DNA of 64,000 bases from Malacoraja senta (Eukaryota). The stretch spans positions 4,280,001 through 4,344,000 of the forward strand of contig CM075993.1 in NCBI GenBank assembly GCA_038087875.1. The letters are read 5' to 3'. The position numbers and the translations under genes are program-made. Shown piece after piece: positions 5,172-59,900 of this stretch. The notes under the pieces are model-generated. The model was not told the DNA's origin, made no database searches, and saw nothing but the letters and a program-made list of their open reading frames with translations. Every line of letters begins with the position of its first letter. Within the stretch, counting starts at the first letter, position 1.

Positions 5172-5312
5172 GTTAACAGCCGCGAAGTGGTGGCCATTAA
5201 GTGCGTGAGTAAGAAAAGTTTGAACAAAGCCTCGGTGGAGAACCTCCTCACGGAGATCGAGATTCTTAAGGCAGTCAAACACCCTCACATTGTCCAGCTG
5301 AAGGATTTTCAA
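5172..5312 (+). CDS. ULK3: ULK3 coding exon 2 ([47 protein letters not shown])
   Basis: VAIK lysine and helix-C glutamate; cag| acceptor, |gtaagt donor; 141 nt, phase 0/0. Confidence 0.95.
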
Positions 5313-5313
5313 G

Positions 5314-7342: not shown

Positions 7343-7463
7343 TGGGACGGGGAGAATATATACCTCATCATGGAGTACTGCGCTGGAGGAGATCTCTCCC
7401 ACTTCATCCGTAGTCGGAGGGTGCTTCCCGAGAGAGTGGTCTGCCGGTTTCTGCAGCAGCTCG
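7343..7463 (+). CDS. ULK3: ULK3 coding exon 3 ([40 protein letters not shown])
   Basis: Kinase hinge MEYCAGGDL; gcag| acceptor, |gtaagt donor; 121 nt; not in ORF track, read by hand. Confidence 0.95.
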
Positions 7464-8897: not shown

Positions 8898-9002
8898 CCT
8901 CTGCTCTGCAGTATCTTCACCAGCGTCACATCTCTCATCTCGACCTGAAGCCACAGAACGTTCTGCTCAGTTCCCAGTCTTCTCCTCACCTCAAGCTGGC
9001 TG
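8898..9002 (+). CDS. ULK3: ULK3 coding exon 4 ([35 protein letters not shown])
   Basis: Catalytic loop HLDLKPQN; polypyrimidine tract + cag|, |gtgagt; 105 nt. Confidence 0.95.
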
Positions 9003-10390
9003 GTGAGTTCACGTCCGTCCCTCTCCATCCCTCCTTCATGCTGATAGTCACAGGATGCTGGAGTAACTCAGCAGGACAGGCGTCAATCATGGCCCTCTTC
9101 ACGTTGCTGCCTTTACCCCCCCTCCTCATCTCCGTTGCCCACCCACCCAATATATCAATAGCAATCAATCAATATCAGTTTTATTCGTCACTTGCACATA
9201 AAATGCAGTGAAACGAATTTGCCAGCAGCGGTACAATGAAAAAAACACACAAAAACACAATAAAAATTGAACACAAGCAGCCACTGTGGTGGAAGGCACA
9301 ACATTTGGCCAGTCCTCCTCCATTTTCCTCCTTGCAACTTTCACCGGTTGCAATCTCCGCTTTAGTTTAGTTTAGTGTAGAGATACAGCGCAGAATCAGG
9401 CCCTTCGGCACACTAACACTATCCTACACCCACGAGGGACAATTTTTACATTTACCACCAAGCCAATTAACCTACAAACCTGTACGTCTTTGGAGTGTGG
9501 GAGGGAACCGAAGATCTCGGAGAAAACTCACGGGGAGAACGTACAAACTCCGTACAGACGGCGCCCGTAGTCGGGATCGAACCCGGATCCCCGGCGCTGC
9601 ATTCGCTGTAAGGCAGCAACTCTACCGCTGCGCCACCATGACCGCCCATTAAAAATACTCAATGACTTGGCCTCCACTGCCCTCTGTGGCAACGAGTTCC
9701 ATGGATTCATCATCGTGTGAATAAATAAGTTCCTCCTCAACACCATTCTAAAGGCACGTCCTTTTATTCCGAGACGTTGCCCTCTGGTCCCTGACTCTCC
9801 CATTACTGGACCATCCTTTCTGCATCCACTCTATCCAAGCCTTCTGTAGTATTGAATGTGTACCGGCAATTGACCATGCTAGTAGATCGGATGGACTGAA
9901 TGGCCTTCCTTTGCCCCCTAAAGTTTCCAGATTGCTCTCTGAAGCCACTCGTACAATCATGGCATTTTAGGTAACAATCTTTACGCGGGCGGTGTAGGTC
10001 TTCATGGAGACCAGGGACTGCAGATACTGGAATCTGGATCAAAACACAAAACAGACTCATCCGACACTGCAAGAAATGGCAGAGAATTGTGGACGCAGCC
10101 CAGACCATCACATTAACCAACCCCCCTTCCTTTGAAGACAGACACCAAATGCCGGAGTAATTCTACGGGTCAGGCAGCATCTCCGGAGAAAAGGAATCGC
10201 GTCGAGACCCTTCTTCAGACTGAGACCCCTCCACTTACACCTCAAGCTGCCTCGGCAAGGCCAGCAGCATCATCAAGGACCAGTCGCACCCTGGTCACTC
10301 CCTCTTCTCCCCTCTCCCGTCAGGCAAGAGGCACAGAAGTGTGAAAATGCACACCTCCAGATTCAGGGACAGTTTCTTCCCAGCTGTTAT

Positions 10391-10960
10391 TCAAGATTCA
10401 AGAGAGTTTATTGTCATGTGTCCCAGATAGGACAATGAAATTCTTGCTTTGCTTCAGCACAACAGAACATAGTAGGCATGAATACATACAGAACAGATCA
10501 GTGTGACCATATACCATTATATAAATATATACACACATGGATAAATAAAACAGATAAGGTGCAAACAAACAGATAATGGTCTATTAATGTTCAGAGTTTT
10601 GTTACATTTGAGTTTAATAGCCTGATGGCTGTGGGGAAGTAGCTATTCCTGAACCTGGACGTTGCAGTCTTCAGGCTCCTGTACCTTCTACCTGAAGGTA
10701 GCGGGGAGATGAGTGTGTGGCCAGGATGGTGTGGGTCCTTGATGATACTGCCAGCCTTTTTGAGGCAGCGACTGCGATAGATCCCCTCGATGGTAGGGAG
10801 GTCAGAGCCGATGATGGACTGGGCAGTGTTTACTACTTTTTGTAGTCTTTTCCGCTCCTGGGCGGTCAAGTTGCCGAACCAAGCCACGATGCAACTGGTC
10901 AGCATGCTCTCTACTGTGCACCTGTAGAGGTTCGAGAGAGTCCTCCTTGACAAACCGACT
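10391..10960 (-). mobile_element. Rex1/Babar-type LINE 3' fragment, nested in a + strand fragment of a related element
   Basis: ORF 10591..10953: YRCTVESMLT...IIKDPHHPGH...LPSGRRYRS...RFRNSYFPTAIRLLN. Confidence 0.75.
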
Positions 10961-11391
10961 GAACCATTCTAGCAACAACTAGAGAGCAGTCCTGAGCTGC
11001 TATCTCCCTCATTGGAGACCCTCGGACTATCTTTGATTGGACTTTACTGGACTTTATCTTGCACTAAACATTATTCATGTTATTCCCTTTATCATGTCCC
11101 TGTACACTGTGTGGACGGCTCGATTGTAATCATGCATGGTCTATCCGCTGACTGGTTAGCACGCAACAACAAGCTTTCCACTGTACCTCGGTACACGGGA
11201 CAATAAACCGAACTCGAACTCGTAGCCGAGAGCTGGGAGAACTCAACGGGACGGGCAGCAAGTGTGGAGGAATCAGTCTGCCTCTTCCGCAGATGCTGCC
11301 TGAGGCGCGGAGTATCTTTTGTGCGTTTCCGGGACTGATGGCCCTACTTTTGTGTCCCATCCCCCCCCCCCCCCCCCCCCACCCACCGCAG

Positions 11392-11535
11392 ACTTTGGCT
11401 TTGCGCAGCACATGTCCCCGTGGGACGAGAAGCGCGTACTGCGCGGCTCCCCGCTGTACATGGCGCCCGAGATGGTTTGTCGGCAACAGTACAACGCCAG
11501 AGTGGATCTGTGGTCAGTCGGAGTCATTCTGTACG
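11392..11535 (+). CDS. ULK3: ULK3 coding exon 5 ([48 protein letters not shown])
   Basis: DFG and APE motifs; cag|, |gtgagt; 144 nt; phase matches exon 4. Confidence 0.95.
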
Positions 11536-32592: not shown

Positions 32593-32624
<32 letters not shown>

Positions 32625-32697: not shown

Positions 32698-33464
32698 TTA
32701 TAGAAACCACAAGCCTGGAAGCAGAATGAGGAGAAGTGGGGAACACGTGTGTGCCGCAGAGAAGTTGGATTCCGGGACACTTTGGTGCGGTTTTAAATCT
32801 GTTCTGTTTATTTCATAATCCTCATATTCATAATTCTCATCGGAGTCCGGCGTGGCCGTCAGAAACGAGTGGCCGTTGATGGCACAGAATTTCTGAATGT
32901 TCTCCTTAACCACTTCACAGAAAGGCCTCTCCACGCCGTCGCAGACACATGTGTTGAGCAGAATGCCAGTGGGGATGGAGAGGAGGTAGTGGATGGTGTC
33001 CCGGCACACCGCCGTGCACCTCCTCCCGTTAAAGAGCTGCCCGCAGTTGGAGAGGTAATCCTTCATCGCCCCGTGACACACCGACTCATCCTCGCACTTC
33101 TGCCGCGCTTTGGTACAGCCGAGATCCGACTCGCCGCTGTACCTCCGGGGCAAGCACGGCTCGATGGCCCCTCTTGGCCCGCCTGCATTGGGCGTCCTGG
33201 TCGCAGTCACAGTTCTCCAGCTCCGGCCCGTTCACAGTCTGGTTGAGTTTGACCAAGGCGCCGATGCAGTGGCTGGGGCAGTGCCTCCGCAGGGCCCTTC
33301 AGGAAGGGCTCGCAAGCCGCGCTGTACTGGCTGTAAGCCCACTTGCACTCTTTCTCCTGCTGGCAACGCAGCAGCGCCTGCCAACACACCGACTGAGCCC
33401 CGGTCACCGGCCTAAAGCACGCCACGATCGCCAGGTACCAGCACAGCCCGACTGCCCGCAGCAT
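32698..33464 (-). CDS. GAS1-like protein (signal peptide, two Cys-rich GFRalpha-like domains, GPI signal); intronless; two +1 frameshifts in this assembly; about 254 aa when corrected
   Basis: Three frame segments: ...VCWQALLRCQQEKECKWAYSQYSAACEPFLKG / LRRHCPSHCIGALVKLNQTVNGPELENCDCDQDAQCRRAKR / AIEPCLPR...GCTKARQKC...CVCDGVERPFCEVVKENI...LLLILLPGLWFL*, matching GAS1 motifs (CWQALL, CPSHCI, AIEPCLPR, CVCDG.ERP.CE). Span 767 nt = 765 + 2. Confidence 0.9.
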
Positions 33465-40330: not shown

Positions 40331-40332
40331 CA

Positions 40333-40514: not shown

Positions 40515-40630
40515 ATGGCCATGGACGTCGCCGAGCTGCGGAGCGGCGGGTCTGTGCTGAGCACCGTGGCCGAGGTGGTGGAGCAGATCCTCTTCTACCT
40601 GCCCACCAAGTCGCTGCAGAGAAGCGCCAG
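40515..40630 (+). CDS. FBXO22: FBXO22 exon 1 (MAMDVAELRSGGSVLSTVAEVVEQILFYLPTKSLQRSA, start of F-box)
   Basis: gccATGg Kozak; F-box-like EVVEQILFYLP; AG|gtaact donor. Confidence 0.92.
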
Positions 40631-40685
40631 GTAACTAACTCCAGGGGCTCCGGGCCCTTCTGGCCCGGCTCCCCGCCACAGGCCT

Positions 40686-41552
40686 CATCCCCCTAGCAAC
40701 CGCTCCCCCAAATCCCCTAGCAACCGGTCTCCATCCCCCTAGCAACCGCTCCCCCAAATCCCCCATCCCCCTAGCAACCGCTCCCCCAAATCCCCCTGGC
40801 AACCGCTCCCCCAAATCCCCCATCCCCCTGGCAACCACTCCCCCAAATCCCCCTAGCAACCGCTCCCCCAAATCCCCCATCCCCCTAGCAACCGCTCCCC
40901 CAAATCCCCCTAGCAACCGCTCCCCCAAATCCCCCTAGCAACCGCTCCCCCAAATCCCCCTAGCAACCGCTCCCCCAAATCCCCTAGCAACCGGTCTCCA
41001 TCCCCCTAGCAACTGCTCCCCCAATACCCCCATTCCCCTAGCAACCGCTCCCCCAAATCCCCTAGCAACTGATCCCCCAAATCCCCCATCCCCCTAGCAA
41101 CCGCTCCCCCAAATCCCCCATCCCCTAGCAACCGGCCTCCATCCCCCTAGCAACCGCTCCCCCAAATCCCCCTAGCAACCGGTCTCCATCACCTAGCAAT
41201 TGATCCCCCATCCCCCTGGCAACCGCTCCCCCAAATCCCCCTAGCAACCGGTTTCCATCCCCCTAGCAACCGCTCCCTCATCCCCCTGGCAAATGCTCCC
41301 CCATCCACTAACATCCGGTCTCCATCCCCCTAGCAACCGCTCCCCCAAATCCCCCATCCCCCTGGCAACCGCTCCCCCATCCCCTAGCAACCGGTCTCCA
41401 TCCTGGTACCCCATCCCTTAGCAACCGCTCCCCCCCATTTCCCCTAGAAACTGCTCCCCCAAATCCCCCATCCCCTTAGCAACCGGTCCCCCCATCCCTA
41501 AACAACCGCTCCCATCCCCCTGGCAACCGGTCTGCAACCCCTTAGCAACCGA
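40686..41552. repeat. C-rich minisatellite in FBXO22 intron 1
   Basis: Variable 19-31 bp units built on CCCCTAGCAACCGCTCCCCCAAAT; about 29 cores by eye. Confidence 0.92.
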
Positions 41553-41796
41553 TGTTCCCATCCCACTGGCACCCGGTCCCCCCCATCCCCTGTCAACAGA
41601 TCCATCGTTCCCCAGCAATCAGTGCCCCCCCCCCCCATACCCTTGAAAACCAGCCCCCCCCCTCCTCCCATCCCTGAGTAACTGGTCACCCATGCCCCTC
41701 ACATACAATCCTTCATGACCCAACAAGCGGTCTTCCCCACTTGCTAGTAAACCATGCCATCACTTCTTGCCCTATGTTTGCCGCTTTGTGCCTCAG

Positions 41797-41941
41797 TGTG
41801 TGCAGGCTGTGGAGTGACTGTGCGCGAAGGGTCTTGAGGAGACACCGAAGACTGTCGTGGATCACGACCAAAGGCCATGCTTACGCAGACGGGGAACATG
41901 GACAACACTTTCTGGTGAACAAAATGATCGAGGAACTGGAG
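41797..41941 (+). CDS. FBXO22: FBXO22 exon 2 (SVCRLWSDCARRVLR...MIEELE)
   Basis: F-box end VCRLW; ctcag|, |gtaaat; 145 nt. Confidence 0.92.
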
Positions 41942-43061
41942 GTAAATGTTGCAAAAAATAAACTGATGGTGCTGGGAATCGGAAATTAAGAGAGAAGACA
42001 CTGAAAACGCTCAGCAGGTTGGGCAGAAGTAGAGGAAAGGGAAACAGAGGTAATGTTTCTGGTCACACATCTTTTGTCAGAACAAAGAAAGTGAAACAAG
42101 TTAAGTCAAGTTGCGGAGAGAATATTCGGGGCAGAGGAAAAAGATGATCATTGAGGCCAGGATTTGCCCAGGAGGTCTGGATGTTTATAGACTATAATCT
42201 GTTTAATAGATTAACCAGTCAGTTTTGTGAAAATTAGAAAGATAACAAATTAAAGCACATGTTGAAGCAATTAATTGTCAATTAGATCTGTCCCTGAAAC
42301 TAAAAGCAGAATGGCCAACTGGCCAGTGTGTGTGTAGAGCGAAACCCTGAGTTAATATTGCAGATGGATAATCTTGCATCAGAACTGGCCAGATCTGATT
42401 TAAAGAGAAATCTGATTTCTGCAGGGATCCTGATTGACCTGCTGAGTTACTCCAGCACTTTGTGTCTTTCCTTGGTAAAGCAGCAACTACAGTTCTGCAC
42501 CCTGGCCTCACGATATCAGCAATGTTCCTTTATACTATCCATCCATTCTTTATTCTCCATTTTCTCGTTAACTCTCTCAGTTTAGTTTAGTTTTAGTTTA
42601 GAGATGTAGAGAGGAAATGGGCCCTTCGGCCCACTGAGTCCACACCTACCAGCAATCCCCGTACACTAGCACTATCCTTCACACGAGGGACAATTTACAT
42701 TTTTTTAATACTAAATCCATTTAACATACAAGTCTGTACATCTCTGGAATGTGGGTGGAAACTGGAGCATCTGGGGAAAACCTACATGGTCACAATGAGA
42801 AAGTATAATCTCCGTACCGACAGTATCCGTAGTCAGGATTGAACCCAGGTCTCTGGCGCTGTAAGGCAGCAACTCTCCCTGCTGCCCCAACCACAACTGT
42901 TAACTATGTTTCTCATTCACAGATGCTGCCTGACTTTGTGTTGTTAACACTTGTTTTTATTGTAGATATCCAACATCTGTATTTTTTTTTTGATTTTCAA
43001 TATAAAAAATAATATTCTGGCTTGAGACCAAATCTGTAAACATTATCTTTATTTTGCACAG

Positions 43062-43146
43062 GAGGTATATGTACTGCCAGAGACAGTACTTTACATGGCT
43101 GGCACTGATACCTTCTGCGTACAGAGTTCCAGTAGATGGAGGAAAG
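43062..43146 (+). CDS. FBXO22: FBXO22 exon 3 (EVYVLPETVLYMAGTDTFCVQSSSRWRK)
   Basis: LP.TVLYMA motif; acag|, |gtaaac; 85 nt. Confidence 0.88.
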
Positions 43147-43249
43147 GTAAACATGTTTTAAAAATATCAACAGGGCATCGCTGTGAGGAGTTTATTATCT
43201 TTCTGCCTGGGAAAATAAGCTTGAATTCAGTTAAGCAGTACCAGTAGAT

Positions 43250-43668
43250 AGAAACATAGAAAATAGGTACAGGAGTAGGCCATTCGACCCTTTGAGCCTG
43301 CACCGCCATTCAATATGATCATGGCTGATCATCCAACTCAGTATCCTGTACCTGCCTTCTCTCCATACCCCCTGATCCCTTTAGCCACAAGGGCCACATC
43401 TAACTCCCTCTTAAATATAGCCAATGAACTGGCCTCAACTACCTTCTGTTGCAGAGAATTCCACAGATTCACCACTCTCTGTGTAAAAAATGATTTTCTC
43501 ATCTCGGTCCTAAAAGACTTCCCCCTTATCCTTAAACTGTGACCCCTTGTTCTGGACTTCCCCAACATCGGGAATAATCTTCCTGCATCTAGCTGTCCAA
43601 CCCCTTAAGAATTTTGTAAGTTTCTATAAGATCCCCCCTCAATCTTCTAAATTCTAGCGAGTACAAGC
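43250..43668 (-). mobile_element. CR1-type LINE 3' fragment
   Basis: ORF 43338..43568: SRTRGHSLRIRGKSFRTEMRKSFFTQRVVNLWNSL. Confidence 0.8.
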
Positions 43669-44781
43669 TAGAATTTATGTGTGGATTTGAAATAAATATC
43701 TTTTGAGTTCAGTGATTTTAGTTTCAGATACAGCGTGGAAACAGGCCCTTCGGCCCACTGAGTCCACGTTGACCATTGGTCACCTGTTCACACTAGTTCT
43801 ATGTTATCCCAATTTCACACCCTCTCCCTACACACGAGGAGCAATTTACAGAGGCCAATTACCTACAAACCTGCATGTCTTTGGGGTGTGAGAGGAAACT
43901 GAGCACCCAGAGGAAACCCACGAGGTTACAGCGAGAACGTGAAAACTCCATGCGGACAGCAACCCAAGGTCAGGACTGACCCCGGGTCTCTGGGCGCTGT
44001 GAGGCAGCAGCTCTTCCAGCTTTGCCACCTTTCATTTCGTTATAAGTTGCTTCTGCATTTTGAAGTCCACACCTGAGATATGTATGTTTTCAATGTACAT
44101 TAATTCTTGAGTCAATGTTCGCTTTCTATTCGGACTTTACTACAAAACATATAACTGTTACAGAAATTCTTTCATATTTAACCAAATTTTCTGTCAGCGG
44201 CAGGAAGATACAGCCTTTGATTCTGAGGGAACTTGCACTTGTTATAGTCCTGTTAAGACATGTGTTTTAATGGGAGTTTTTACACAGAGTGCCTGGAATG
44301 TGCTGCCAGGGGTGGTGGTAGAGGCAGATACAATAGTGGCATTTAGGAGACTTTTTGGTAGGCACATGGACATGCAGGGAATGGAGGGATATGGATTATA
44401 TGAAGGTAGATAAGAATTGGTCTTGGCATCATGCTTGGCACAGACATTGTGGACCTTGAGCCTGTTCTTCTGGTATACTGTTATATCCCGATGCTGTGTT
44501 CAGCTAGGCAGCAGTTTTGAGACCATTTTACAAATCTCCCCTCTTAAATTAAGATTTATTAAATTAAAATTGGTTTAGATTGAAACCATTTTCATGACAT
44601 TATATCTTTATTGTTGCTCATTTGATAAAAGTTTGTTTGCGGCAGCAGCCCAATATAAAACAGTCTAGCTGCCAATTGCTTTGTTGCCGTGCCACATGGT
44701 TGTTTATCATTTACTTATATGGATGTATATGTTTGGCCATTGTTAATCATTTTCTTTCTTTTTGTGATTTGACTTCCACAG

Positions 44782-44895
44782 AGCGAAGAGATGAATCTGC
44801 AATGAAAAGTAAAGATGCAGAAGTGGCCACAAAGTTTGAGAAACTTCTGCCAATGAATTGCAAATCATTGGGAATCAGTTGCCCTGGAATTGTCT
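44782..44895 (+). CDS. FBXO22: FBXO22 exon 4 (ERRDESAM...FEKLLPMNCKSLGISCPGIV)
   Basis: acag|, |gtaagt; 114 nt; phases consistent. Confidence 0.88.
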
Positions 44896-46501
44896 GTAAG
44901 TGGCTTCTCTTAGGAGTTCCTTGTAGCTTATGCAGTTGTTTGTAATATTAAATTGTGTTTAGGTTTAGGTTCTGTTATTGTCACGTGCACCGAGGTACAG
45001 TGAAAAACATTATTTTTCATGCTATCCAATCAAGTCAGATAATAGACACTAAATGCTGGGGTAACTCAGCGAGGCAGGCAGCATCTCTGGAGAGAAGGAA
45101 TGGGTGCCGTTTCGGGTCGAGACCCTTCTCAGACAGTCAGATAATAAATACTCTCCTTAGCTAGAGTACGGTCCTGACCTCTCATCTACCTCATTGAAAA
45201 CTTTTGAATTCTCTTTAATCAGACAGTATTGGACCTCAATGTTATGAATAGTCTATAGATGACCATAATTCTGGATGTAAAGGGAAAATAAAATTTGAAC
45301 TCTTGCGTAAATGGTGGTTGATGCATGAGGAATTAATTTTAAATCTGAGATCAACAAACTTTTGTTAACTGAAGTTTAAGAGGTATGGTGTATATGTGGA
45401 TCCATCATTTTAAGACACACATAGATCATGATGTTAATGAATAGTGTAAAAGCCAATATGACCTCAGACTCTTCATATATTCCGGATGTACATAGAAAGG
45501 TCACCTGTTCATTTGAAAGGTACTGAATTCTCACTGTTTCTTATTACACTCACACTTACGCAATGACAAATTCTTTGTATAAATGTCACAGTTTAATGTA
45601 ACGAGTTATGGACACAAAAGGTTGGAGTAACTCAGCGGGTCAGACTCCATCTCTGGAGAAAAGGAATAGGTGTCGTTTCGGGTTGAGACCCTACTTCAGA
45701 CTCCTACACTAATGTGATGACTTTGCAGGTTGTTCTTAACAGTTGTCTAACTGGCTCAGTTATTGTACTTGTGGAGGCATCGCAACAAAAGTCCCCAGTT
45801 TTTGCGTTTCATGGCAAATATTCCCCACCATTATCCCCCCTCTGCTCTCCCCACATCACCTGCAACATCTGTCAAGCAAAAAAAGAAGATATCACTTCGG
45901 CCTTTTCACTCTAACATTTTGCTAAACAAGACCATAAATGGAATGATTTGCATTCAGAAAGAACTTGTACTTCAGAACCGAATTGGTTTCACTTGATTCT
46001 CGGATCCAAAAAAGTACTGTGACTGAACAATATGGACGATGGCTTGTTCAGTTGTTGAGATTGTTTAGAAATCCCATCTTACATGGTTTGATTCCTTGTG
46101 CAATCTTTGTGCTTTCAGCCTGGATGTGAATTTCCGAAAGGTATTCTTTAGGAGAAAATGACTTGTGGAAAAAGAGGCCTCTGTGGTCTCAAATTGCTGC
46201 CAGGGCCCTAATGTTTTGAAAAGAGACTGCAGTTTGAATAGAGAGGTGTACATATGTTCAGAGAGTACCTGATTGTATTCCTGAGATTGGTAACATTTAA
46301 CTTTACAGTCTGTTTCTCTGACACTCTATCTTTCAGTAAATATAACCCCTCAGATCTGGTCTGCAATCTGAGGGGTTATATTTACTATCTTTTTGTCAAG
46401 TCGTTCAATTGAGTATCATTTCCCAAAAGAAGGAAACGGTGAAGCAGTAATAATCCATCTTGTAGAATTTCTCTTAAGATATCTTCAAAAATTAACTTTT
46501 T

Positions 46502-47948
46502 TATTTATTTATTTTTTTTTTTTTAATTTATTAGAAGTACATTACATTACAACCAATTACATTAGTACTCGTCACATATATCTCATTACAATTAATGTAC
46601 TCCGTTTATTTTTTACACTAATAAAGGGAAAGGATGAGATTGAGAGAAAGAAGAAAGTGAAGGGAAAAAGTGAAAGTGTAAAAAACGTGACAACAAAAAA
46701 AACAAAAAACAAAGACCCGATAAGAAAGAAATTAAAAACAAAAAGAAAGAGTTAAGAAATAGACCCCGAAAAAGAAGAAAAAAGAGAAAGAGGGAAAAGA
46801 GACAAACAAATACTTTTTTGTAAGCATCACGCAAATGGGACATACCAACTCTCCAGCTTTCATCCCCCCTTACCTGACCTCAGTTTTTTTTAGTACTTTT
46901 GCACCCTATACTTGTAATAATTCTATAAATGCAGACCACGTCAGGTGGAAGTGATCTGGTTTACCTGCCAGGAGGAGTCTTATCTCTTCTCGGTGTAATG
47001 TTTCGAACATATTTGAAATCCACATGTTTATAGTTGGTATTGGAGCGTTTTTCCAGAATTTTTGGATTAACTTTTTTCCAGTGGAGCGATCCTTCTCTCA
47101 CCAATGAAACTGAATAACATAAATTATAACAAAAACCCAATTATACATAGTACAATCAGAACTTGGAAACAAATAAAACAAAATTTAAAATGAAGAAATT
47201 TATCGCTTTTATCTCCCATAATTAATAACCCTTCATTTAATCCCTCTATTACAGACAAATCTTTCATACAATGGGATAGACTAGGAATTAAAATGTTCGG
47301 TGACTTGTACGAAACTGGAAAATTACTATCATTCCAACAATTACAAATAAAATATAAACTCGGAAATAATCAATATTTTAAATATTTTCAAATATGTGAC
47401 TATTTGAAAAAATATACAAAAGATCATTATAATAGCCCAGCAGATGTATTGGATGAAGCAATGCAGATAAAAGCTGAATCAGCAAACTTAATATCATATT
47501 TGTATAATATTATCTTAAATGTAGAAAAACCATCTACGGAAGGTATTAGAAGAGACTGGGAACAAGAATTAGCTATTAAAATCTCAAAGGAAAGGTGGAA
47601 TGAACATTTATTAAACGTGCATAGATGTTCGATTAATGTAGGACACACTTTAATACAATTTAAAATTTTACATAGATTATATTATTCTAAAACTAAAATC
47701 AATAAAATTTTCCCAAATGTATCATCAATTTGTGATAAATGTCAATCTCAAGAAGCTACTATAGCGCACTCATTTGTTTTCTGTACAAAAATTCAAAAAT
47801 GTTGGATTGAAATTTTTGAAATCTTTACAAAATTATTTAAAATAAAACTGATACCCAAAGCAGAATGGATTATCTTCGGAACAACGGAAGATAGTCCAGA
47901 ACTAAATGTGTTCCAAAAGAAATTAATAGACTATGGGTTAATAACTGG
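46502..47948 (-). mobile_element. L1-clade retrotransposon, 5'-truncated and 5'-inverted, in FBXO22 intron 4
   Basis: ORF2 C-terminal zinc knuckle CDKC...HSFVFC on + (47083..47953); its continuation, 3' UTR and polyA on - (47082..46502); TSD AAAAATTAACTTTTT. Confidence 0.85.
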
Positions 47949-48367
47949 AAAAATTAACTTTTTAATCATGACATTTGAGATGGAGTATTCTTGTATTTAC
48001 CTTGTAACATCAAATTTTACAAACACAATCACTTATGCAACTGTTAAGAACAACTTGTTATGCCATTATATTAAACTGTGGCATTTATGTAAAATAATAG
48101 TTTTTGTGTAAAGTATGCATATATTTATTACACATTTTATTAAGTTCCAGAAACGTGAAGGAATTTTGCAGAATTTGAGTTATTTCAGTAATAGGTTGTT
48201 CCTATTAGTTATAAGAGAACTTAATTAAATATTAGTAACATTTTGCTAATAAATTATTTTGCTGCTCAGTTGGTCAATATTTTAACTAGGTGGAATTTTG
48301 GTTATATCAAATCGATATTTGTTGTTGTGTTATATCAAACCTATTGCTGGGGTATCTTGCCTTTCAG

Positions 48368-48535
48368 ATACTCCTATGGGCAATGGCAAGCAGAGACCTC
48401 TCGAGGTGGAAGATGGAATTGCAGGATTTGCTCTGCTCCTGCCCAAAATTGAAGGGGTGACGATTAAATGCTTTCACCTGTCAAACAAAGATTTGAAGAA
48501 TAACACTTTCGATCAAAGAAAACTCCAAGCAGCAG
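48368..48535 (+). CDS. FBXO22: FBXO22 exon 5 (YTPMGNGKQRPLEVEDGIAGFALLLPKIEGV...KLQAA)
   Basis: TPMG and GFALL.P.IEG motifs; tttcag|, |gtaagt; 168 nt. Confidence 0.92.
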
Positions 48536-51476
48536 GTAAGTACTCCTTCCCTTCACCCGTGCTAATTGAGACAATATGAAACTGTGTTGAAGAGTCAGGA
48601 GTAAATTTCAAGCACAAATTAACTATGCAGTTTTAGAAACCAGGAGCTGCTGATGTTGGTTTACTCAAAAGGTCTCAAAGTTGGTCTGGGTCAAGCAGCA
48701 TTTCTGGAGAACATGGATATGTGATGTTGCAGTTTGTGACCCTTCCTCAGAAGTCACCCTTCTTCGGACACAAGAAAGAAAGACACAAAAAGCTGGAGTA
48801 ACTCAGCGGGACAGTCTCTCCAGAGATGCTGCCTGAGCCGCTGAGTTACTCCAGCTTTTTGTGTCTATCTTCGATTTAAACCAGCATCTGCAGTTCCTTC
48901 TTACACAATGCATTTCTAGAGTCTGATGAAGGGCCCCAACCCGAAACGTTATCTGTCAATTCCATCCACAGATGCTGCCTGACCCGCTGAGTTCCTCCAG
49001 CACTTTGTGTTTTGCTCAATTCCAGCATCTGCAGTTTCTTGTGTCGCCATCAACATTTCTTTTATTTTCCAAGGATTGCTTTTGTTTAGCTACTGAGACT
49101 GGTTCACCAGGACATTGTTAAATTAATCAAATTAGTGAGAGAGGAAACTCAATTAATTATAGTGCTAGGGTAGTTTTCCAGGGATTACTTGTACCTCAGT
49201 TAAAAGACCTGAGCACCAAAATCTAATATGCAGGGTGTGGATTAGAAAGTGGAATAACTAGCATGAATGGGTGATTGGTGGTTGTTTTCAACTCAGTGGG
49301 CTGAAGGGCCTGTTTCCACACTGTATCTTTTCTTTGAGATACAGCGTGGAAACAGGCCCATTGGCCCACCGCGTCCGCGCTGACCAGCGATCATGCGTAC
49401 AATAGTTCTAGTCCTGTACACTTCACAATTTACAGTAGCCAATTAACCTGCAAACCTGCACTTCAGTGTGGGGGAAACCGGAGCACCCAGAGAAAACCCA
49501 AGGGGTCACAGGAGGAACGTACAAACTCCATACAGATAGTACCCTTGGTCAAGATTGAACCCGGGTCTCTCTCGCACTGTGTCACTGTGCCGCCCTATTT
49601 TTCAATGTTTCAATAAACGAAGTTTGATATTTGTACTGCTGTCACATTTTACGCATAGTGTACTGAGGCTTGTTTGCTCCCACGGTGGGTGGTTAGAAGG
49701 GAAAAGACTAACGGTGGAATGTGTAGGAAGGAACTGCGGATGCTGGTTTAAACCGAAGATAGCCACAAAAAGCTGGAGTAACTCAGCGGGTGAGGCAGCA
49801 TCTCTGGTGAAAAGGAATAGGTGACGTTTTGGGTTGAGACCCTTCTTCAGACAGAGAGTCAGGGGAAAGGGAAACTAGACGGAGATGTAGATATAGAACA
49901 AATGAATGAAAGATATGCAAAAAGGAACGACGATCAAGGAAAGGTGGAGCCCACAATGGTCCATTGTTGACTGTGGGGTAGGTGATAATGAGCTATACAG
50001 ACAGTGAAACTCAACTGGACGACAGTGAAATTAGTACAACGACTATGGTGGGGGAGGGTCGGAGGGAGAGACGATGCAAGGGTTACTTGAGGTTAGAGAA
50101 GTCAATATTCATACTGCTGGGTTGTAAGCAAACGAAACAGTGGAATATTGGGCTGCTTGAATGCACTGAGCCTGCTGTAAGCCATCCATCGTAGAAACGA
50201 GGCTTCTATTTCCTGGCGACGTGCTCTATGAAGCTCTCCGCAGGAACAGATATAGCACTGGTATTTCCAAATATTTAAGATGTTAAAATTTAAACACAGA
50301 ATCTTGAAACGGAAATTGGCCTTAGTAACGGATATAAAAGTGCGGGGAAATAAATTTGTTCTTTATATCTGCAAATATACACACTGCAGCTGTGCATTGT
50401 ACTCTCCTTTGGAAACTTGGTCCCATTGACAGGGTATGGCAAACCGCCACAGCTATTTAAGAGTTTTTATGCAGATAATGGAAGAAGAATTGTCTATTCC
50501 CCAACTTGCTGACCTTGCATCTACAGTCAGGCAGTGTGGAAGGATCTATACATTTTGACTAGATTCTTAACTGTGTGCAATTTGTTTGCAATCCATAATA
50601 ATACTGAAATGAGGGAAGGAAATAAATCTAGACACACCAATTATTACCTTGAGTTTGCGCAATGTAAACTCATTAAATAGCAACCTATCCTCCAACTTCC
50701 TGCCTTTTGGATTCAATACATTTCAGATACTCAGCATTTTAGGCAGTAATTTCAGATTTCCAGCATTCTGTCTATATTTTCATTGGTGAATTTAGGTGAT
50801 AATTGCGCATTTATGTCTGACGTATTATCTTGAACCATCATACCTTTAATTGTTTCCGTTTATTCTACCCGTTCATGTATCTGCCCTTTTCTGTTCTTCC
50901 TATTGCTTGTTCCCCACCCATCAGCTTGCTTTAGCTCCAATTATTCTCAATTGTGGCAAAAGATCTCCATCTGATATTTTAGCTCTGTCTTTTCCCTCGC
51001 TCTCCACCGGCTCCTGAAAAGCTGAGGATTTCCTGCATTTTCTGCTTCATTTCTGATTCCCGATTAGCAGGACTTTGTTTTAGTATTCTCCTGTTACCCC
51101 TCCACAAAATGTGCCAACTATCTCTTTGGATGCGCAATCTGTTGCTGTACCTTCGTGTTTAGAAGCGATATTGCTTTTGGATTGTAAGTAGTTTTGCCTC
51201 GACTTCCCAAAGCCTTTCCACCTTCCTGGATGAATGCAGTTGCAACAACACTGAAAACTATCCAGTTCAAAGCAATCTGCTTGATTGGCATTCACTTCTC
51301 CATGGTGCTCTGTATCGACAGCACTCACCCTCTACAAAATGCACTGCCGATACTCTGGTTCCAACTCCCAGAAGCTGCACTCTCTACTTAGAAGGACAAT
51401 GGCAGCAGGGGCCATTTATCACTTTCACCCCTGCCCGTCTTACCTATCACAATTTTCACATCATCTGTCTTGTTTA

Positions 51477-51965
51477 AGGGGCTGTCCCACTTGGGTGACC
51501 TAATTGGCGAGTTTAGAGGAGTTTGAAAAAAGGACATATTGAAGACCTCCTTCGACTATGTTGAAGACTAGCTACAACTAACTTCGGGAAAATTGGACAC
51601 CGAATAGTGGAGAGTGAAGACGACCTCCTTCGATCTCCCTTCGACTATGATGAAGACTATCTACAACTACCTTCGACTACCCTCGATTACCTACGACTAA
51701 CGTGCCGACCTACTACGGCTAAACCTACGAGTAAAAAAGTACTGATTTTTCCGTGGCGACCTTTTTTTACTCGCGGGCAGTTTTTAACATATTGAAAAAA
51801 AACGGCGCGACCTAGCTGAGCCCTCGAGTACGCGGAGACCACTCTCAAGCATGAAGGAGAGTTACGAAGACCTCCTACGACCTTGTGTCGATCATGCTGC
51901 GAGTATGAGTCGAGGGCAAACTCGCCAGAACTCGCGGATTAGGTCGCCCAAGTGGGACAGGCCCT
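51477..51965. mobile_element. PIF/Harbinger-type MITE, related to 37911..38126
   Basis: TIR AGGGGCTGTCCCACTTGGGTGACCTA; TTA TSD; shares subterminal CATGCTGCGAGTATGAGTC.AGGGCAAACTCG. Confidence 0.8.
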
Positions 51966-52809
51966 TTACCATCTTCCCTGTTATCAGGCTTCTGAACTGT
52001 CCTAACATAAGCTGTTCGATTCACCTCTAGCCCATTGAGTACATTGGACTTTGACTATGGAACAGATGCGCTACAATGCTGAGAACTATATTCTGCACTC
52101 TGTATCTTCCCATTTGCTCTGTCTATTGTATTTGAGTTTGAGCTGATTGTATCTATATTTTGTATATCTGATCGGTTTGGATGGCATGCAAGCCAAAGAT
52201 TTTCACTGTACCTTGGTACATGTGACAATTATTAACTCTAGCATTTGTATAAACAAGGAACTTTAGATGCTGGTCTACAAAAAAAAGACACAAAGTGCTG
52301 GAGTAACTCAACGGGTCAGGAGGCATCCGTGTAGAACATGGATAGGTGACGTTCCCAGAGTCTGAAGACGGGTCCTGATTCAAAACATCACCTATCCATG
52401 TTCTTCATGGGATGCTGCCTGACCCACTGAGTTACTCCAGCACTTTGTGTTTTTGTTTCCCTTGGAAACATTTGTTTTTCATGGCTGGATCTATATCTTG
52501 GGATGCTCTACCCAACAATGTTGTGGGAGAACTTTCACCATAAGGAGTGCAGTGGTTCAAAATGTTGGCTCACCACCACCTTCTCGAGAGTGATTAGGGA
52601 TGGACACTCTTTGTAGTGACAGCACATCCCAAAGTAACGGGCGGCACAGTGGCACAGCAGTAGAATTGCTGCCTTACAGCACCAGAGGCCCGGGTTCGAT
52701 CCTGACTACGTGTTGTCTGTAAGGAGTTTGTACATTCTCCCTGTGACCGCGTGGGTTTTGTCCGGGTGCTCCAGTTTCCTCCCACACTCCAAAGATGTTC
52801 AGGTTTGTA

Positions 52810-53228
52810 TAACCAACCTGATCTCCCGGTGGCTCAGCACTTCAACTCCCCCTCCCATTCTGAAAACGACCTCTCTGTCCTGGGCCTCCTCCATGGCCAG
52901 AGTGAGCCCCACCGTAAATTGGGGGAGCAGCACCTCATATTTCGCTTGGGTAGTTTACACCCCAGCGGCATGAACATTGACTCTTCAATTTTGGGTAGTC
53001 CTTGCTTTCCCCCTCTTTCCCCTCCCCTTCCCAGCTCTCCCACAGCCCACTGTCTCCGCCTCTTCCTTTCTTCTTACCGCCCCCACCACCCGCACATCAG
53101 TCTGAAGAAGGGTCTCGACCCGAAACGTCACCTTTTCCTTCGCTCCATCGATGCTGCCTCACCCGCTGAGTTTCTCCAGCATTTTTATCTACCTTCGATT
53201 ATTCCAGCATCTGCAGTTCCTTCTTAAA
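52810..53228 (+). mobile_element. Penelope-like retroelement 3' fragment (GIY-YIG endonuclease C-terminus + 3' terminal region), inserted in a SINE
   Basis: PVAQHFNSPSHS...LGEQHLIFRLGSLHPSGMNID; flanking 10-bp direct repeat CAGGTTTGTA (52800..52809, 53229..53238). Confidence 0.8.
53102..53129 (+). ncRNA. Minimal type-I hammerhead ribozyme core (Penelope-associated), representative copy
   Basis: CTGAAGA-A-GGGT-CTCG-ACCC-GAAA-CGTC: CUGANGA and GAAA boxes, 4-bp helix II, palindromic ACGT, GUC triplet. Confidence 0.6.
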
Positions 53229-56200
53229 CAGGTTTGTAGGTTAATTGGCTTCTGTAAATTGTAAATTGTCCCTAGTGTGTAGGGTAGAGCTCGTGTACGG
53301 GGTGATCGCTGGTCAGCATGGACACGGAGACCGAAGGGCCTTTATTCATGCTGTATCTCTAGAGTCTAAAGTCAATGGTGTAAGGATGTCCCACCTGAGC
53401 AGAGAATAAGCAAGTTGAGGTTGTACTCTCTGTTTAGTGATTAAGGCTGATATGGCCTTCTCCACCAAAAGTACACCTCGCTGACCCTCAGACTAACCTG
53501 ATCTAAGTCTCGAGGCATTTGCCACTAGACCTGAGATGGATGGTTAACTAATTTTCCAAATTAATCATCTGGACAGCTGAAATTACAGTTTTTAACCATA
53601 CAGATTTATGCATAAAAGAATGTAAGGATGCACTTACTAACTTTATACCAAATATGTTTAATAATCGCTCCTTCCCATCCATTTGCAAAATGTAACCACT
53701 TATAACCCTGAAGAGCTAATTACAGCAAATCAACCATGATATCCCTGTTGTGAAAATTGTTGCTGTATCTGATTTCCATTCATAATACATTTAAATGGAT
53801 CTAATTATATTTGTCTCTCTGAGAATGATAACCAGCAGTCTGCAAATACGGAACAAAATTTCACAAAGACTTTGGGTAATACGTGCTGGTGCTTGAGTAG
53901 CTTGCTGCTTTTTGTCAGACGTGCTTTGGGGAAACTCCAATTTATTAACAAGGTCTTTTGCCTTTGCTTCTGGGCATTGTGCAATCTGGGTCAAGACCTT
54001 TATGGGGCCAGCACTGCTAAATCCAGTCTAGATGGGCAGGTTAAAAATGTCTTGTTTCTGCTTTCCTGACAGCTGTTAAATGCATTGTGGAAATATTTGG
54101 ACAGTTTTAAATGAATCCCCGGGGACTGCTCTATCGGAGTTCCATCTGGTCTATAACTGACTTAGTTATCTTGCTTTGCAATGTTGAGCCATTAAGTATT
54201 TTGACAAGGGAAGTAAAGTTCGACTGCTTTTCTGAACGTTTTGTGAGTTGTTGAAAAGAAGCCAGTGTCTACTGTGGGCGGAAGAATGTGTATGTGTACG
54301 TGACCAAAATACACACATGTGTGCACATCCATGCCTCTGATTGAAGGCTTACACACTCATTTTGTTACTACCATCGGGGTGAAGGAATAGGAGCTTAATC
54401 CCTTCGGTGGTGGGGAAGTCGATCCCAGGGATGGACCATGCAATGTCCACCACCTTCTGAAGCCACCTTCGTTCTTGAGCATTCAAATTACCAAAGCAAG
54501 CCCCGATACAAATGGTCAGTGTGCTTGCTGTCCACTGTACAGCTATAGAAAGTCAATAGATTATTTGATGACATTCAGAATCTCCTCCAACCTCTTGAGG
54601 AAGTTGAGGCATTGGTAAACTTTCTTTGTGATTGCAACTTTCGTGTTGGTTGGTAGCCTAACTGGCTGCTGTGAATTGCACTTAGTGTAGGTGGGTGGTT
54701 GAAGAATCATGAGTTAATTGACGTGAGAGAGAGAGAATGGGTTATTGGGAAATGGAGGTGGGAGAATGGGACTGCCCGGAAAGCTGGCATAGATTTGATG
54801 GGTAGAATAGTCTGATCCTGTGTCATAAGGAAATATGAGGAGGGTGGAAAGAGAAATGTTTTGCTAGTTTGAAAAACACAAGAGACTGCAGTGGCTGGAA
54901 TCTTGAATCAAATCACAAGGTGCCGGAGGAACTCAGCAGTCAGGCAGTAACTGGGGAGGGAATTGACAGGTGACGTTTCAGGTCGGGACCCTTCCTCAGA
55001 GAGGTGACCCTCAACATCGACTGTCCTTTCCCTCCCCAGATGTTGCCTGACCCGCCGAGTTCCTCCAGAACATTTTGTTTCCCGGTTTGCTTGATAATTA
55101 ATTCTGCTCTATTGTGACACTATTATCTGGTCTCTTGCCACTGGATGGCGCTGCAGGATTTTACAGTATCTTGTACCACACTTGATTAGACTGCAAACTA
55201 TGTTTCAACGGATTTACAGCGAAATTGGGACTGGAAGTGTGCAATGTAACACTGGAGGTTATTTCAGTGTGGAAGGTTGCTACAATGCGGCTCACAATCA
55301 GAATGTAGTTACCACTGCAAATTATAATCATCTGTGATTGATCCCGGATTTTCTGTTTGTAATAAAACTGGGTCATTTCGAGCCACAAGAAAATTGCTCA
55401 GTAGTTTTCTCCTCTGTTCCCTGCTGGAGGGAAAAGAAGAATTGCATTTCTATATTGCCACATCTCTCAAGCTTTTCTATGCTGTCACATCTCTCATTCT
55501 TTTGCATACAGTGAACTTGTTTGAAGTGCGTGCTCGTTATGTGATGTGGCATTCCCTGAGAAACATAATTCATAAAGAATAAGACAGGCATGTCACAATT
55601 GCTGTCTAGAGCAGGCAGTGAATAATGGAGGAAGGATGGACTGAAACAAAACGCTTGAAATTCCCAGCAATTTGGGTGGAGTGAGAACGGGGCCGATGTT
55701 AACATGAAACATTAACTCTCTCGCTGCACACGTGCTGTTCAACCTGCTGAGTTTTCCCAACGTTTCCTGCTTTGGTTTCAGGTTACAGAAAGGCCAAGAT
55801 ACAGTGGATGTGGCGACGATGTTTCCATGAGTGGAAGAGTCTAGGACAAGAGGCCTCAGAATGAAAGGATGTACCTTTAGAAAGGAGATGAGGAGGAAAT
55901 TCTTTAGCCAGAGGGTGGTGAATCTGTGGATTTCACTGCCACATGGCGGTGGAGGCCAAGCATTGGGTATTTTTAAAGCGATGATTGCTAGATTCTTGAT
56001 TAGTAAGGGCATCGAAGGTTATGGGGAGTAGGATGGGGTTGAGGGAGAAAAATAGATCATCCATGATGGAATAGCTGAGTAGACTCGATGGGCTGAACGG
56101 CCTAATTCTGCTCCTATGCCTTATGGTCCGCTGTCCATTGTATTTACATTTAAAAACGGATATACGTCTTTGAACAGAGGCTGAAGGTATTGCTTTTTAT

Positions 56201-56768
56201 TTGATGCAGAATAAAAGAGAAATTAGTGCCCCATTAATATGTTTTTTTTTACTCTGAAATCTGTTGGCCTGATTGGGTAGAGACTAGATATTCAACATCA
56301 TCCTCCAGGTGTCTTTTACATTGTGATGGGTGGAAATACACGGTATCTGTAGAAGGTCAACTAGATTGACGTGCAGGAAGGAACTGCAGATGCTGGTTTA
56401 AACCGAAGATAGACACAAAAGGCTGGAGTAACTCAGCGGGACAGGCCGCATCTTTGCAGAAAATGCAGAAAGCTTTTCTGTAATGCAAGCATTCCTTCTC
56501 TCCAGGGATGCTGCCTGTCCCGCTGAGTTACTGCAGCTTTTTGTGCCTAACAACTAGATTGATGTTGAGCTGGCAATTGCATTGCATGAGCTGTTATATG
56601 TGTAGCAGCACCTTATTGTCTACAAGTCTAGAACGCCTTATTGTCTGCAAAGCAGTGGTCCTGACTAACATCACCGGAAAACTGATTACCCATGCTACCA
56701 AACCTTCTGAATGCCCTGAACCTCACGGCATGATTAAGAGTTTTATTGTTTGGTTTCTCCTCTCCTAG

Positions 56769-56934
56769 GTCTTCTTGATAACCCAGACCTACGCACTGTC
56801 CTCCTGTTTGGATACAATATTTACAAGCCTCCGGCAGTTGACTTCATTCAGCGACTCACCAAGCCTATCAACGTGAGCAACACGATTATAGTAGGAGGTT
56901 ATGGTGACCGAGTCTTTTCACCCAGTTCTGAAAG
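56769..56934 (+). CDS. FBXO22: FBXO22 exon 6 (GLLDNPDLRTVLLFGYN...IIVGGYGDRVFSPSSE)
   Basis: GLLDNP.LR.VL.FGYN motif; cctag|, |gtgggt; 166 nt. Confidence 0.92.
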
Positions 56935-59900
56935 GTGGGTTTAATGTTAACGGCAAGGCCTTTGTCTGTTCATGTAGCTTATTAACATTGAGAAGAAAAT
57001 GTTTCTCTTCAGTCTTCATGCGATTCATCCATTTCCTGAAAATGAACCGTCTGTGCAACAGGATTCCTTTTAGTTTTTTTAGATTTAGAGATACAGCGCG
57101 GAAACAGGCCCATCTAGTCCACACCGACCACCACCCCGCACTCCAACACTATCCTACACACTAAGGACAATTTTACCAAGCCAATTAGCCTACAAACCTG
57201 TATGCCTTTGGAGTGTGGGAGTAAACCAAAGCTGCTGGAGATAACCCATGCAGGGCACCGGGAGAACGTACAAACTCCGTAAAGACAGCGCCCGGAGTCA
57301 GGATCAAACCTAGGGTGCTGACGCTGTAAGGCAGCAACTCTACCGCTGCGCCACCGAGCCGTCCTCTTGGGGGTAGTTAAGCTCCACTCCCGACGCCCTT
57401 GGAACCCATGGGAGACTTTGTGAAATTGCTCCTAAGGCTTGCTTAAAGTGCTGATGTGACTCGCAGCCCTGAAGAGCAGCAAATCCTTGCGATTGGCCTC
57501 GGATCCATTTTGAGCTCATTGTTCTGGGGTAAGTGTGCCCATTAATCCCAGCATCACTCAGCCAGAGAGAGGTTAAAATCATTACGAAGGGCGGCACGGT
57601 GGCGCAGCGGTAGAGTTGCTGCCTTGGAACGCTGGAGACTCGGATTCAAGCTGCTCCCTCATTAATCAGATGGAATCAATGGAATCCTTTAACTCCCTGG
57701 TTTATTACCACTATCTCACAAATATTCAAAGATTTTGCTTCCTCCAAATTTTAAGCAAGAGATTTTGGGAGAAAAAATTGTCATCTCTTTAAAAAAAAAG
57801 TAACCTCCTACTTTCTCCCACAAGAGAAAATATCAGCTTTGTATCCACCCGATCGATGAAGGCTCCTCAAGACTTCCTAAGTTTCAATCACGACCCCTTT
57901 CACTTTTTGAAAAAGACATCATTCCAATGGATATAAGCCTAGCCTGTCCAATCTTTCTTCATTAGACAACTCAAACCTTTCAGCTTTTGATCTAGTAAAT
58001 GCTCTTCAAATTGCTTCCAGCATCACAAAGGTGTTTTTCACCTGCTTGGTGTGCAGTATGTGGTGTTACGTACGAAAATGTGACCGCTTACCTGTGGAGG
58101 TTCACAACAGCACCATAGTGAATGACCTGTTGATCTGTTCCCTGGGATGTTAATCAGGCCATTAGACGAAACTCCTTGACCAGTTTGGGTGGTATGGTGG
58201 CAAAGTTGCTGCTTTACAGTTCCAAAGACTCAGGTTCGATCCTGACTGTCTGTACGTAGTTTATATGTTCTCCCCATGACCTGCGTGGGTTTTCTCCGGG
58301 AGTTCCAGTTTTCTCCCACTCTCCAAAGACGTACAGGTTTGAAGGCTAACATGCTTGGTATAACTGTACATTGTCCCTCGTGTGTTTCGGATAGTGCGGG
58401 GATCGTTGGCTGGTGCGGACCCGATGGGCCGAGGGGCCTGTTTCCGCGCTGTATCTCCGAATTAAAAACTAAACTGAACCGTCATGTTGAATCCACGAGG
58501 AATGGAGAAGTAAGGAACTGCAGATGCTGGTTTGCGGGGGGGGGAAATACACAAAGTGCTGGAGTAACCCAGCCAGTCAGGCAATGTCTCTGGAGAACAT
58601 GAATAGGTGACGTTTCGGGTCGCGATGCTTCGACAGAGTCAATAATATTAAGGTCCCTGGTTTGGAAACAACCAAGGGAGAGTTAATCTGGGGGAAGCAA
58701 GTGAAGCCGATAGCAAGATGCCCCCCGGACTGGAAGTGCAGCTGTGTTCACCTGAGGCGTCTGAGGCCAAAACATCATCCATCCTTGTCCTCCAGAGATG
58801 CTGCCGGACCCGCTGACTCACTCCAGCACTTTGCGTTCTTTTCAGTAAACAGCAAATTAGTCCTACTGTTTATTTTGTGAGTTTTTGTGTGTTTATTCAA
58901 CTGTTTGTTCTAGGCTCAGTGGAGTGTTTTTTGTGTTACTTATTTTTTAATTTATAATAATTTTTACGATTATTATGTTGAGAAAGTGACAATGCATGCA
59001 TGTCATCATTATCAGTGTAGCCTTTAAAAGGTTTGATTCTATGTAGATCTGCATCTTAAAGCTCCATAGAGCCTCCTTTCATAATGAGATGTTCCCATGT
59101 TCATAGGTACAGCCATTTTGTGGGAAATGCTGTCATCATGTTTTTAAACATCAATTGCTTGTTAGAACTCGCTCAAAAATGAGTCAGTGAAATTTACACC
59201 AAATGGAATGGGAACATCCAGTTAATGAACAAACCTTAACTGTACAAGGCAGCAGTTAGAGTTCTTGGTTTCAAGTCAAACATTTTTTTTTAAGTGGAAT
59301 TACTTTCTTGACAATAAGCAGCCGAATATGTAGCTAAGAGATGTTCTTGGCATCATGCTTGGCACAGACATTGTGGGCTGATGAGCCTGTTCTTGGGCTG
59401 TGCACTGTTCTATATTCCATATCTGGTATTCTTTCTAATTATGTATTTCATAGCCATACATACTTATGGTTATCAAAAATAGGGACACGAAGTGCTGGCG
59501 TAAATCAACACATCAGGCATCGTCTCTGGAGAACGTGGGTGGGTGACACTTTGGGGTTGTGCCCTTTTTCAGTAGCGGTTCTGTTCTCCAAATTTTTAGT
59601 TGAAGAAAGTCATTTTCCAAGTTTGTTTCCGATCCTTTCCTGTCTGGGATCAGCTATTCACTTTCTTCCAGTGTCTCAATTTGCCTGAAGCAGAGAAGTT
59701 TTGTTATAAACGATTCCCCTCGATCACTTGCTTAGTGAGGTGTCCTAGATACAGCAGGTACCTCGGACTAGAGAAGTGGTCCAAGAAGCGAGATAGCGAT
59801 TGGAAATTGCTGGTCAAGGTGAGAGATGTTGATGGGGTGTGGGATTTCATTCTGAGTAGAACCCATGGTCTTCAGAAAATCCCGTAGATGCCATGCATTC

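Follow-up and report, generated by a model that had tools for sequence, protein, structure and literature searches.

What is a gene of the GAS1 family doing between ULK3 and FBXO22 in the genome of the skate Malacoraja senta? GAS1 is one of the three Hedgehog co-receptors defined in the mouse. The human genome has a single GAS1, at 9q21, and human ULK3 and FBXO22 lie at 15q24. The stretch of DNA analysed here, 64,000 nucleotides of contig CM075993.1 and referred to as the window, contains the following features.

2574..19952 (about), plus strand: ULK3, on the 3' side of the GAS1-like gene, tail to tail with it
32698..33464, minus strand: GAS1-like (second GAS1) coding sequence, one exon, 767 nt in the assembly and 765 nt (254 aa plus stop) minus two extra bases
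33396..33464, minus strand: probable signal peptide, residues ~1-23, from hydrophobic windows at residues 4-21, with a presumed cleavage site
33290..33296 (~33292), minus strand: assembly error 1, a +1 frameshift, extra base in a G/C run, absent in contigs X1, X3, X4 and X16
33154..33386, minus strand: GDNF/GAS1 cysteine-rich domain 1, C27-C103, 10 Cys, N74 sequon (Pfam, alignment)
33169..33172 (~33168), minus strand: assembly error 2, a +1 frameshift, extra base in a homopolymer run, absent in contigs X1, X4 and X16
32884..33117, minus strand: GDNF/GAS1 cysteine-rich domain 2, C116-C193, 10 Cys (Pfam PF02351), with six of the seven residues by which the two GAS1 clades can be told apart
32701..32883, minus strand: acidic low-confidence stalk, then a hydrophobic tail of the GPI-signal type, residues ~237-254 (hydropathy, model)
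40530..61415, start approximate, plus strand: FBXO22, on the 5' side, head to head with the GAS1-like gene and ~7 kb off

The position between ULK3 and FBXO22, as given in the initial annotation, is borne out by a kinase exon that matches ULK3 in structure 6FDY (E 4.6e-12) and by a last exon of FBXO22 that matches 8S7D/8UA3 (E 6e-56) and Pfam FIST_C. The first exon of FBXO22 was read by eye, as were the other exons of ULK3, the non-kinase and terminal ones being recognised by comparison with human ULK3. None of the 126 repeat-filtered ORFs (at least 38 aa) of the interval between the two genes reaches a curated Pfam cut-off, and there is one weak sub-threshold match. ULK3 contains a gap of 200 N at 13127-13326 with a long CA/GT microsatellite on its flanks; exons that we would expect, on the plan of human ULK3, from about 13050 (where the kinase ends) to about 14410 (where the second MIT domain ends) are not seen, and several middle exons are apparently missing at the gap. 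Upstream of ULK3, at 48-1950, lie degenerate THAP-like copies in both orientations (Pfam THAP E 0.0023, below cut-off), which are probably transposon remnants. A 15-bp tandem array (40218-40348) lies immediately before the start of FBXO22, whose first intron opens with a C-rich minisatellite of 25 bp (40687-41513), and further inside FBXO22, at 47194-48111, there is a LINE-like ORF of 305 aa (zf-RVT E 0.0032, below cut-off) in an AT-rich stretch with a GC content of 0.28.

The GAS1-family coding sequence begins with an ATG at 33464 on the minus strand and its TAA ends at 32698, and in the window it is split over three frames, with 56 codons in the N-terminal piece, 39 in the middle piece and 156 in the C-terminal piece. 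Comparison was made with contigs X1, X3, X4 and X16, which come from four of the 24 listed sequencing runs. Contig X1, from the same organism (99+% alike, depth 36.8), is without both extra bases and differs by a single change, in the third base of a codon; both bases are also absent from X4 and X16, which are from other species, and X3 lacks the base at 33292, its coverage not reaching 33168. Because the extra bases are missing from contigs of the same organism and of other species alike, we regard the two frameshifts as assembly errors and the true frame as one of 765 nt encoding 254 aa. X1 may come from the sample behind the window's own assembly, and the reading as assembly errors stands either way. 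Among the coding substitutions listed for X16 in the 40 rows covered of a 103-row table, 24 of 35 are at third codon positions, and the window protein, with X at the two breaks, is 97% identical to Leucoraja erinacea XP_055518506.1 (8 differences over 251 non-X positions).

Colinearity with skate proteins of 254 aa, together with the lack of joints in the contig comparison, indicates that there is no intron within the coding region. The initial annotation, which had described an intronless, CpG-rich GAS1-family ORF, was thus right about the family, about a real coding sequence and, for the coding region, about the lack of introns; what it called an ORF, however, is three frames here, of which its mention of a 'corrected protein' was a mere hint. 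The CpG enrichment is weaker than it had stated, as the observed/expected ratio of 0.79 lies above the 0.55 of the window but is equalled or exceeded in 7 of 64 1-kb bins. No further GAS1 copy was found in the window. Some 60 bases beyond the stop codon begins a long, imperfect GT microsatellite that gives way to an AG run (32184-32640), and the nearest AATAAA/ATTAAA on the strand of the gene is at ~31764.

The anatomy of the protein is that of its family. The Pfam GDNF/GAS1 profile matches the C-terminal piece above its curated cut-off (E 1.4e-6) and the N-terminal piece below it (E 0.011), with no Pfam match in the middle piece, and the intact orthologue has two matches to it; not one of the 20 core cysteines varies among 97 aligned sequences. 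Three sequons are present, and N74 is the one that aligns with human N117. The two cysteine-rich domains named in the initial annotation are present, with ten core cysteines each, and the hydrophobic termini make its signal peptide and GPI-type tail probable on hydropathy; GPI anchoring is predicted from the anatomy and the family. When the 97%-identical Leucoraja orthologue is modelled with AlphaFold (mean pLDDT 80.6), the best Foldseek match is chain 7rhq_G, the GAS1 of the PTCH1-GAS1-SHH complex 7RHQ (E 2.3e-13, 56% identity), and GFRalpha and GFRAL are far behind (E 4.4e-4 or worse); the modelled fold is that of GAS1 and not that of GFRalpha. The initial annotation had also stressed that the protein is compact and without the Gly/Ala inserts of mammalian GAS1. 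Its 254 aa agree with this, but the combined Gly and Ala fraction is 0.11-0.14 in canonical GAS1 of shark, skate, gar and coelacanth, which are equally insert-free, as against 0.26-0.28 in two eutherians, and since this lack is common to canonical fish GAS1, compactness says nothing on paralogy.

Whether the gene is a second GAS1 was addressed with trees of sequences gathered in three homologue searches, three cluster look-ups and one profile search; a preliminary quick tree had 55 rows. The cyclostome-rooted tree, built from 170 core columns and 42 rows (four of 46 were dropped: two from amphioxus, Myxine P0360 and Petromyzon P0238), contains a clade of 18 rows with the window gene (support 99/95) and a canonical clade of 21 rows (98/96). 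Rooting on amphioxus with all 46 rows again gives the window clade (98/93) and leaves the canonical clade unresolved. The window clade has members in rays, skates, sharks, a chimaera, gar, bichir, bowfin, teleosts, coelacanth, lungfish, a caecilian, salamanders, turtles, skink/lizards and marsupials, and the canonical clade in sharks and skates (as 'gas1a'), gar, teleosts (gas1a and gas1b), coelacanth, lungfish, frogs, a lizard and eutherians. As chondrichthyans, ray-finned fish, coelacanth, lungfish and tetrapods are represented in each of the two clades, the duplication must be older than the split of cartilaginous and bony fish. Four other placements were rejected by AU tests, namely a duplication specific to chondrichthyans (p 2.2e-7), a grouping of the marsupial copy with eutherian GAS1 (p 1.8e-8), gas1b as the orthologue of the window clade (p 7.6e-4) and a duplication confined to tetrapods (p 2.2e-3). 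The phylogeny across chondrichthyans, fish, coelacanth and tetrapods that the initial annotation had proposed as a check thus yields two clades with the window gene outside canonical GAS1, and that the gene is a paralogue distinct from canonical GAS1, as it had proposed, is close to certain.

The two clades differ near-fixedly at seven positions, six of them in domain 2, and both conserve (at least 80%) 66 of 172 core columns; over the core, the window protein is identical to the Leucoraja paralogue at 160 of 165 positions and to Leucoraja gas1a at 88 of 165. The tetrapod branch of the window clade is long and compositionally biased; its genes are rich in Gly/Ala codons and probably in GC, so that bird assemblies may lack them for technical reasons. 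We note in passing that P0372 is an unnamed protein of 2941 aa with 16 stretches that match the GAS1 profile, and that the Chrysemys paralogue model P0240 (UniRef) is out of frame in its middle part, an artefact of the same kind as the window's, the RefSeq model of that species being intact.

The relation to the teleost genes, which the initial annotation had left aside, follows from the same trees: gas1a and gas1b form one group (100/99) nested in the canonical clade, and the window gene is orthologous to a third teleost gene. In zebrafish this is the unnamed XP_068070970.1, and milkfish has the paralogue as well as gas1a and gas1b. The last two (Chanos P0249 and P0275) share a sequence of 63,121,898 bases, seemingly a single chromosome, an unusual arrangement for a pair from the teleost genome duplication. 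Among tetrapods, all 20 of the turtle sequences score as window clade, as do all five marsupial copies (Monodelphis, Dromiciops, Petaurus, Sarcophilus and Trichosurus), and the two marsupial copies put in trees group there. The claim that mammals lost the gene is therefore contradicted, as is the notion of a peculiarity of cartilaginous fish, the gene being found from chimaera to opossum; since marsupials keep it, any mammalian loss is a eutherian one. The 57 named eutherian sequences are all canonical, having been fetched through canonical queries, and the 20 matches of an opossum query (8000 candidates scored, swamped by low complexity) do not include any eutherian, monotreme, bird, crocodilian or snake sequence. 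It is likely that eutherians lost the window-clade gene, which fits the single GAS1 of the human genome. The sole frog sequence among those 20 matches is canonical, and no frog member of the window clade was found among the retrieved sequences; within the canonical clade two divergent frog lineages are apparent (P0235 of Hyla; P0362 versus P0115 of Gastrophryne).

How the two lineages arose is suggested by the chromosomes on which they lie in the little skate. In the supplement of PMC10115646, linkage group C comprises a 1-alpha copy on LER33 and LER36 (chicken chromosome 10, GGA10) and a 2-alpha copy on LER3 (chicken Z, GGAZ) (SI Table 3), and Ulk3 is placed on Leri_36C and Gas1-1 on Leri_3C (SI Table 10). 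A second gene, Gas1-2 (LE04891), appears in SI Table 5, and it seems to be the orthologue of the window gene; the tables examined give no coordinate for it and it is tied to Leri_36C through blocks of gene ids, the Gas1-2 block holding Scamp2, Scamp5, Arid3b, Tln2 and Hypk and the Gas1-1 block Scamp1 (Leri_3C). The nearest ids to Gas1-2 (Duox2, Hypk) are not neighbours in the window, so the ids are out of gene order. The chromosomal placement of the window gene is thus made through its neighbour Ulk3 and the id blocks, and we note that Leri_36C is at least 14.85 Mb long and that the sequence carrying XP_055518506.1, at 15.34 Mb, matches it. Since '1 versus 2' denotes the first duplication in the scheme of PMC7269912, and Ulk3 and Gas1-1 lie on 1-alpha and 2-alpha of linkage group C, the pair is best read as ohnologues of the first round (1R); 'gas1' is absent from the main text of PMC10115646. 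The earlier proposal of an ohnologue from vertebrate genome duplication is thereby supported, and a 1R ohnologue pair formed by the window gene and canonical GAS1 is, in our judgement, highly probable.

Other accounts of the gene were weighed as well. The three reading frames seen in the window would suggest a pseudogene disabled by two frameshifts, but contigs X1, X4 and X16 are without both extra bases and other skates have intact 254-aa orthologues, so that this account is very improbable. Even more remote is the view that the gene is canonical GAS1 itself, translocated and present as the sole copy in the genome: several databases do label window-clade members plainly as 'growth arrest-specific protein 1', but the trees place the window gene apart from canonical GAS1, each of the nine named ray and skate species that have the paralogue also carries a separate canonical gene, and human GAS1 scores higher with skate canonical GAS1 (251 bits) than with a ray paralogue (185 bits). 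A small-scale duplication on the gnathostome stem, with later movement of one copy to the ULK3/FBXO22 chromosome, has more to be said for it and is still improbable. A single-exon gene moves easily, and the cyclostome genes (two in hagfish and at least two in lamprey, with mixed diagnostic residues; P0121, P0238, P0239, P0359, P0360, P0361) fit neither clade clearly, their HMM scores for the two differing by -3.4 to +6.8 bits, whereas under a 1R origin some of them would be expected to sort. Set against this are the location of both genes on alpha copies of one ancestral linkage group and the parallel pair of Scamp1 versus Scamp2/5, both from the little skate tables (PMC10115646), as well as the single GAS1 cluster of amphioxus named among the four invertebrate matches looked up.

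For the function of this 1R ohnologue we are guided by canonical GAS1, which is GPI-anchored and binds Shh, Ihh and Ret (PMC3575649), with a higher affinity for Hedgehog than for RET (bioRxiv 2024.05.02.592197), engages the Hedgehog palmitate (10.64898/2026.02.06.704427) and helps the transfer of ligand to Ptch1 (PMC13181345). We consider it reasonably likely that the window gene is a conserved and intact second-lineage GAS1 of 1R origin whose GPI-anchored product acts as a GAS1-like Hedgehog co-receptor. The protein would be secreted and GPI-anchored with a two-domain GAS1 fold, would sit on the surface of Hedgehog-receiving mesenchyme, and would bind lipid-modified Hedgehog and hand the ligand to Patched1, partly redundantly with canonical GAS1 and possibly with a weaker modulation of RET. 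RNA-seq of the embryonic skate fin contains reads of Gas1-2 (baseMean 220, log2FC -5.8), which changes together with Gas1-1, Ptch1, Cdon and muscle genes and opposite to keratins (PMC10115646, SI Table 5). That table is titled as a comparison of anterior and posterior pectoral fin, and in it the values of Alx4, Pax9, Hoxa2, Hand2, Grem1, Hoxd10/11 and the myosins all lie below zero and those of most keratins above it, much like a contrast of mesenchyme with epithelium. Because anterior and posterior markers are both negative, we read no anterior-posterior pattern from it and take from it expression alone, which for Gas1-2 in the fin is probably mesenchymal.

The seven near-fixed differences and the long, biased tetrapod branch mean that the function may have shifted, and the same 1R ohnologue could have become a Hedgehog decoy or antagonist, or a modulator of RET or of another pathway. 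Core identity to canonical GAS1 is ~53-56%, six of the seven differences fall in domain 2, the gene has been kept beside GAS1 through the whole of gnathostome history, its tetrapod branch is fast, and mouse GAS1 itself has RET-related roles (PMC3575649; bioRxiv 2024.05.02.592197). The fold and the cysteine frame are nevertheless the same, domain 1 is nearly without fixed differences, the diagnostic changes are mostly conservative, and in the skate fin table the gene moves with Ptch1, Cdon and Gas1-1 (PMC10115646), and we regard such a divergence as unlikely, though it is the main rival. A little more tentative still is a broader proposal, that the ancestor of jawed vertebrates had BOC, CDON, GAS1 and the window gene as Hedgehog co-receptors, the last of the four with a role of its own (for example a tissue-specific or opposing control of Hedgehog or RET in the mesenchyme of fin, limb or craniofacial region); the gene would have been remodelled on the tetrapod stem, kept in marsupials and lost in placentals and perhaps in birds and frogs. 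Were it true, the mouse model of three co-receptors would be a derived, reduced state, and the unnamed third gene would mask the genetics of gas1a and gas1b in zebrafish.

Returning to the favoured reading of a GAS1-like co-receptor, we note that its orthologues are already in public databases as automatic predictions, including Leucoraja XP_055518506.1, Amblyraja XP_032870930.1, Monodelphis XP_056671314.1 and, presumably, little skate Gas1-2. Their names are inconsistent ('GAS1', 'GAS1-like', 'Gas1-2' and plain 'growth arrest-specific protein 1'), and those of the unduplicated canonical gene vary likewise, being 'gas1b' in gar and 'gas1a' in bowfin and sharks, with one hagfish gene called '1b'. 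A literature search, with most subscription papers and older papers on GFR/GAS1 evolution beyond its reach, found no description of the window clade as a separate lineage. Many of the fish and turtle entries called GAS1 are not orthologous to human GAS1, and functions borrowed from the mouse may therefore sit on the wrong gene. One lead to a possible further member of the window clade is a variant of 'gas1l' in Arctic charr, near wee1/dennd5a/tmem9b, with an FST of 0.66 between sympatric morphs, which was read through mouse Gas1 (PMC6802010). A second GAS1 lineage in zebrafish, skate, axolotl, turtles and opossum alters the set of co-receptors to be expected in most non-placental models: studies of Hedgehog signalling in fish and marsupials may overlook a player, and an unnamed third gene could hide phenotypes in gas1a/gas1b mutants. 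The finding owes its value to being open to direct test, in zebrafish as well as in Gas1-null cells.

Among known systems, the GFRalpha1-4 and GFRAL proteins share the Pfam domain and a distant similarity of fold (Foldseek E 4e-4 to 7e-2), but with 15-18% identity and a different packing of the domains (TM ~0.25), and a PDB search at E up to 1 gave no sequence match to them; membership of that group was rejected on domain arrangement and sequence similarity. The ESM Atlas offered clusters at the level of the family only. Canonical GAS1 (human NP_002039.2; 7RHQ chain G) shares with the window protein both GDNF/GAS1 domains and their 20 cysteines, the sequon equivalent to N117, a signal peptide (probable in the window protein), an acidic stalk, a hydrophobic tail and a single coding exon, with 48% identity between the human and window proteins over 201 aligned columns. 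It differs in having formed a separate clade since before the gnathostome radiation, in near-diagnostic residues (Q142, G166 and F181 in the window clade; K, A and I in the canonical clade) and in lying on a different ohnologous chromosome, with neighbours of the DAPK1/CTSL/PTCH1 type (skate chromosome 3) instead of ULK3 and FBXO22. Teleost gas1a and gas1b are of the same family and anatomy, with core identity to the window protein at 84 of 165 positions; in zebrafish, gas1a adjoins dapk1/ctsla (PMC7689362, PMC9210284) and gas1b adjoins c9/fbxw2/ncs1a (bioRxiv 2022.04.21.489004). The history of the window gene has its nearest parallel in a different family, in Kdrl and other ohnologues with a late loss in tetrapods, where a copy from whole-genome duplication was widely kept and then dropped in eutherians (PMC4898815), and as this is a known pattern, a loss of the second GAS1 in eutherians would come as a limited surprise.
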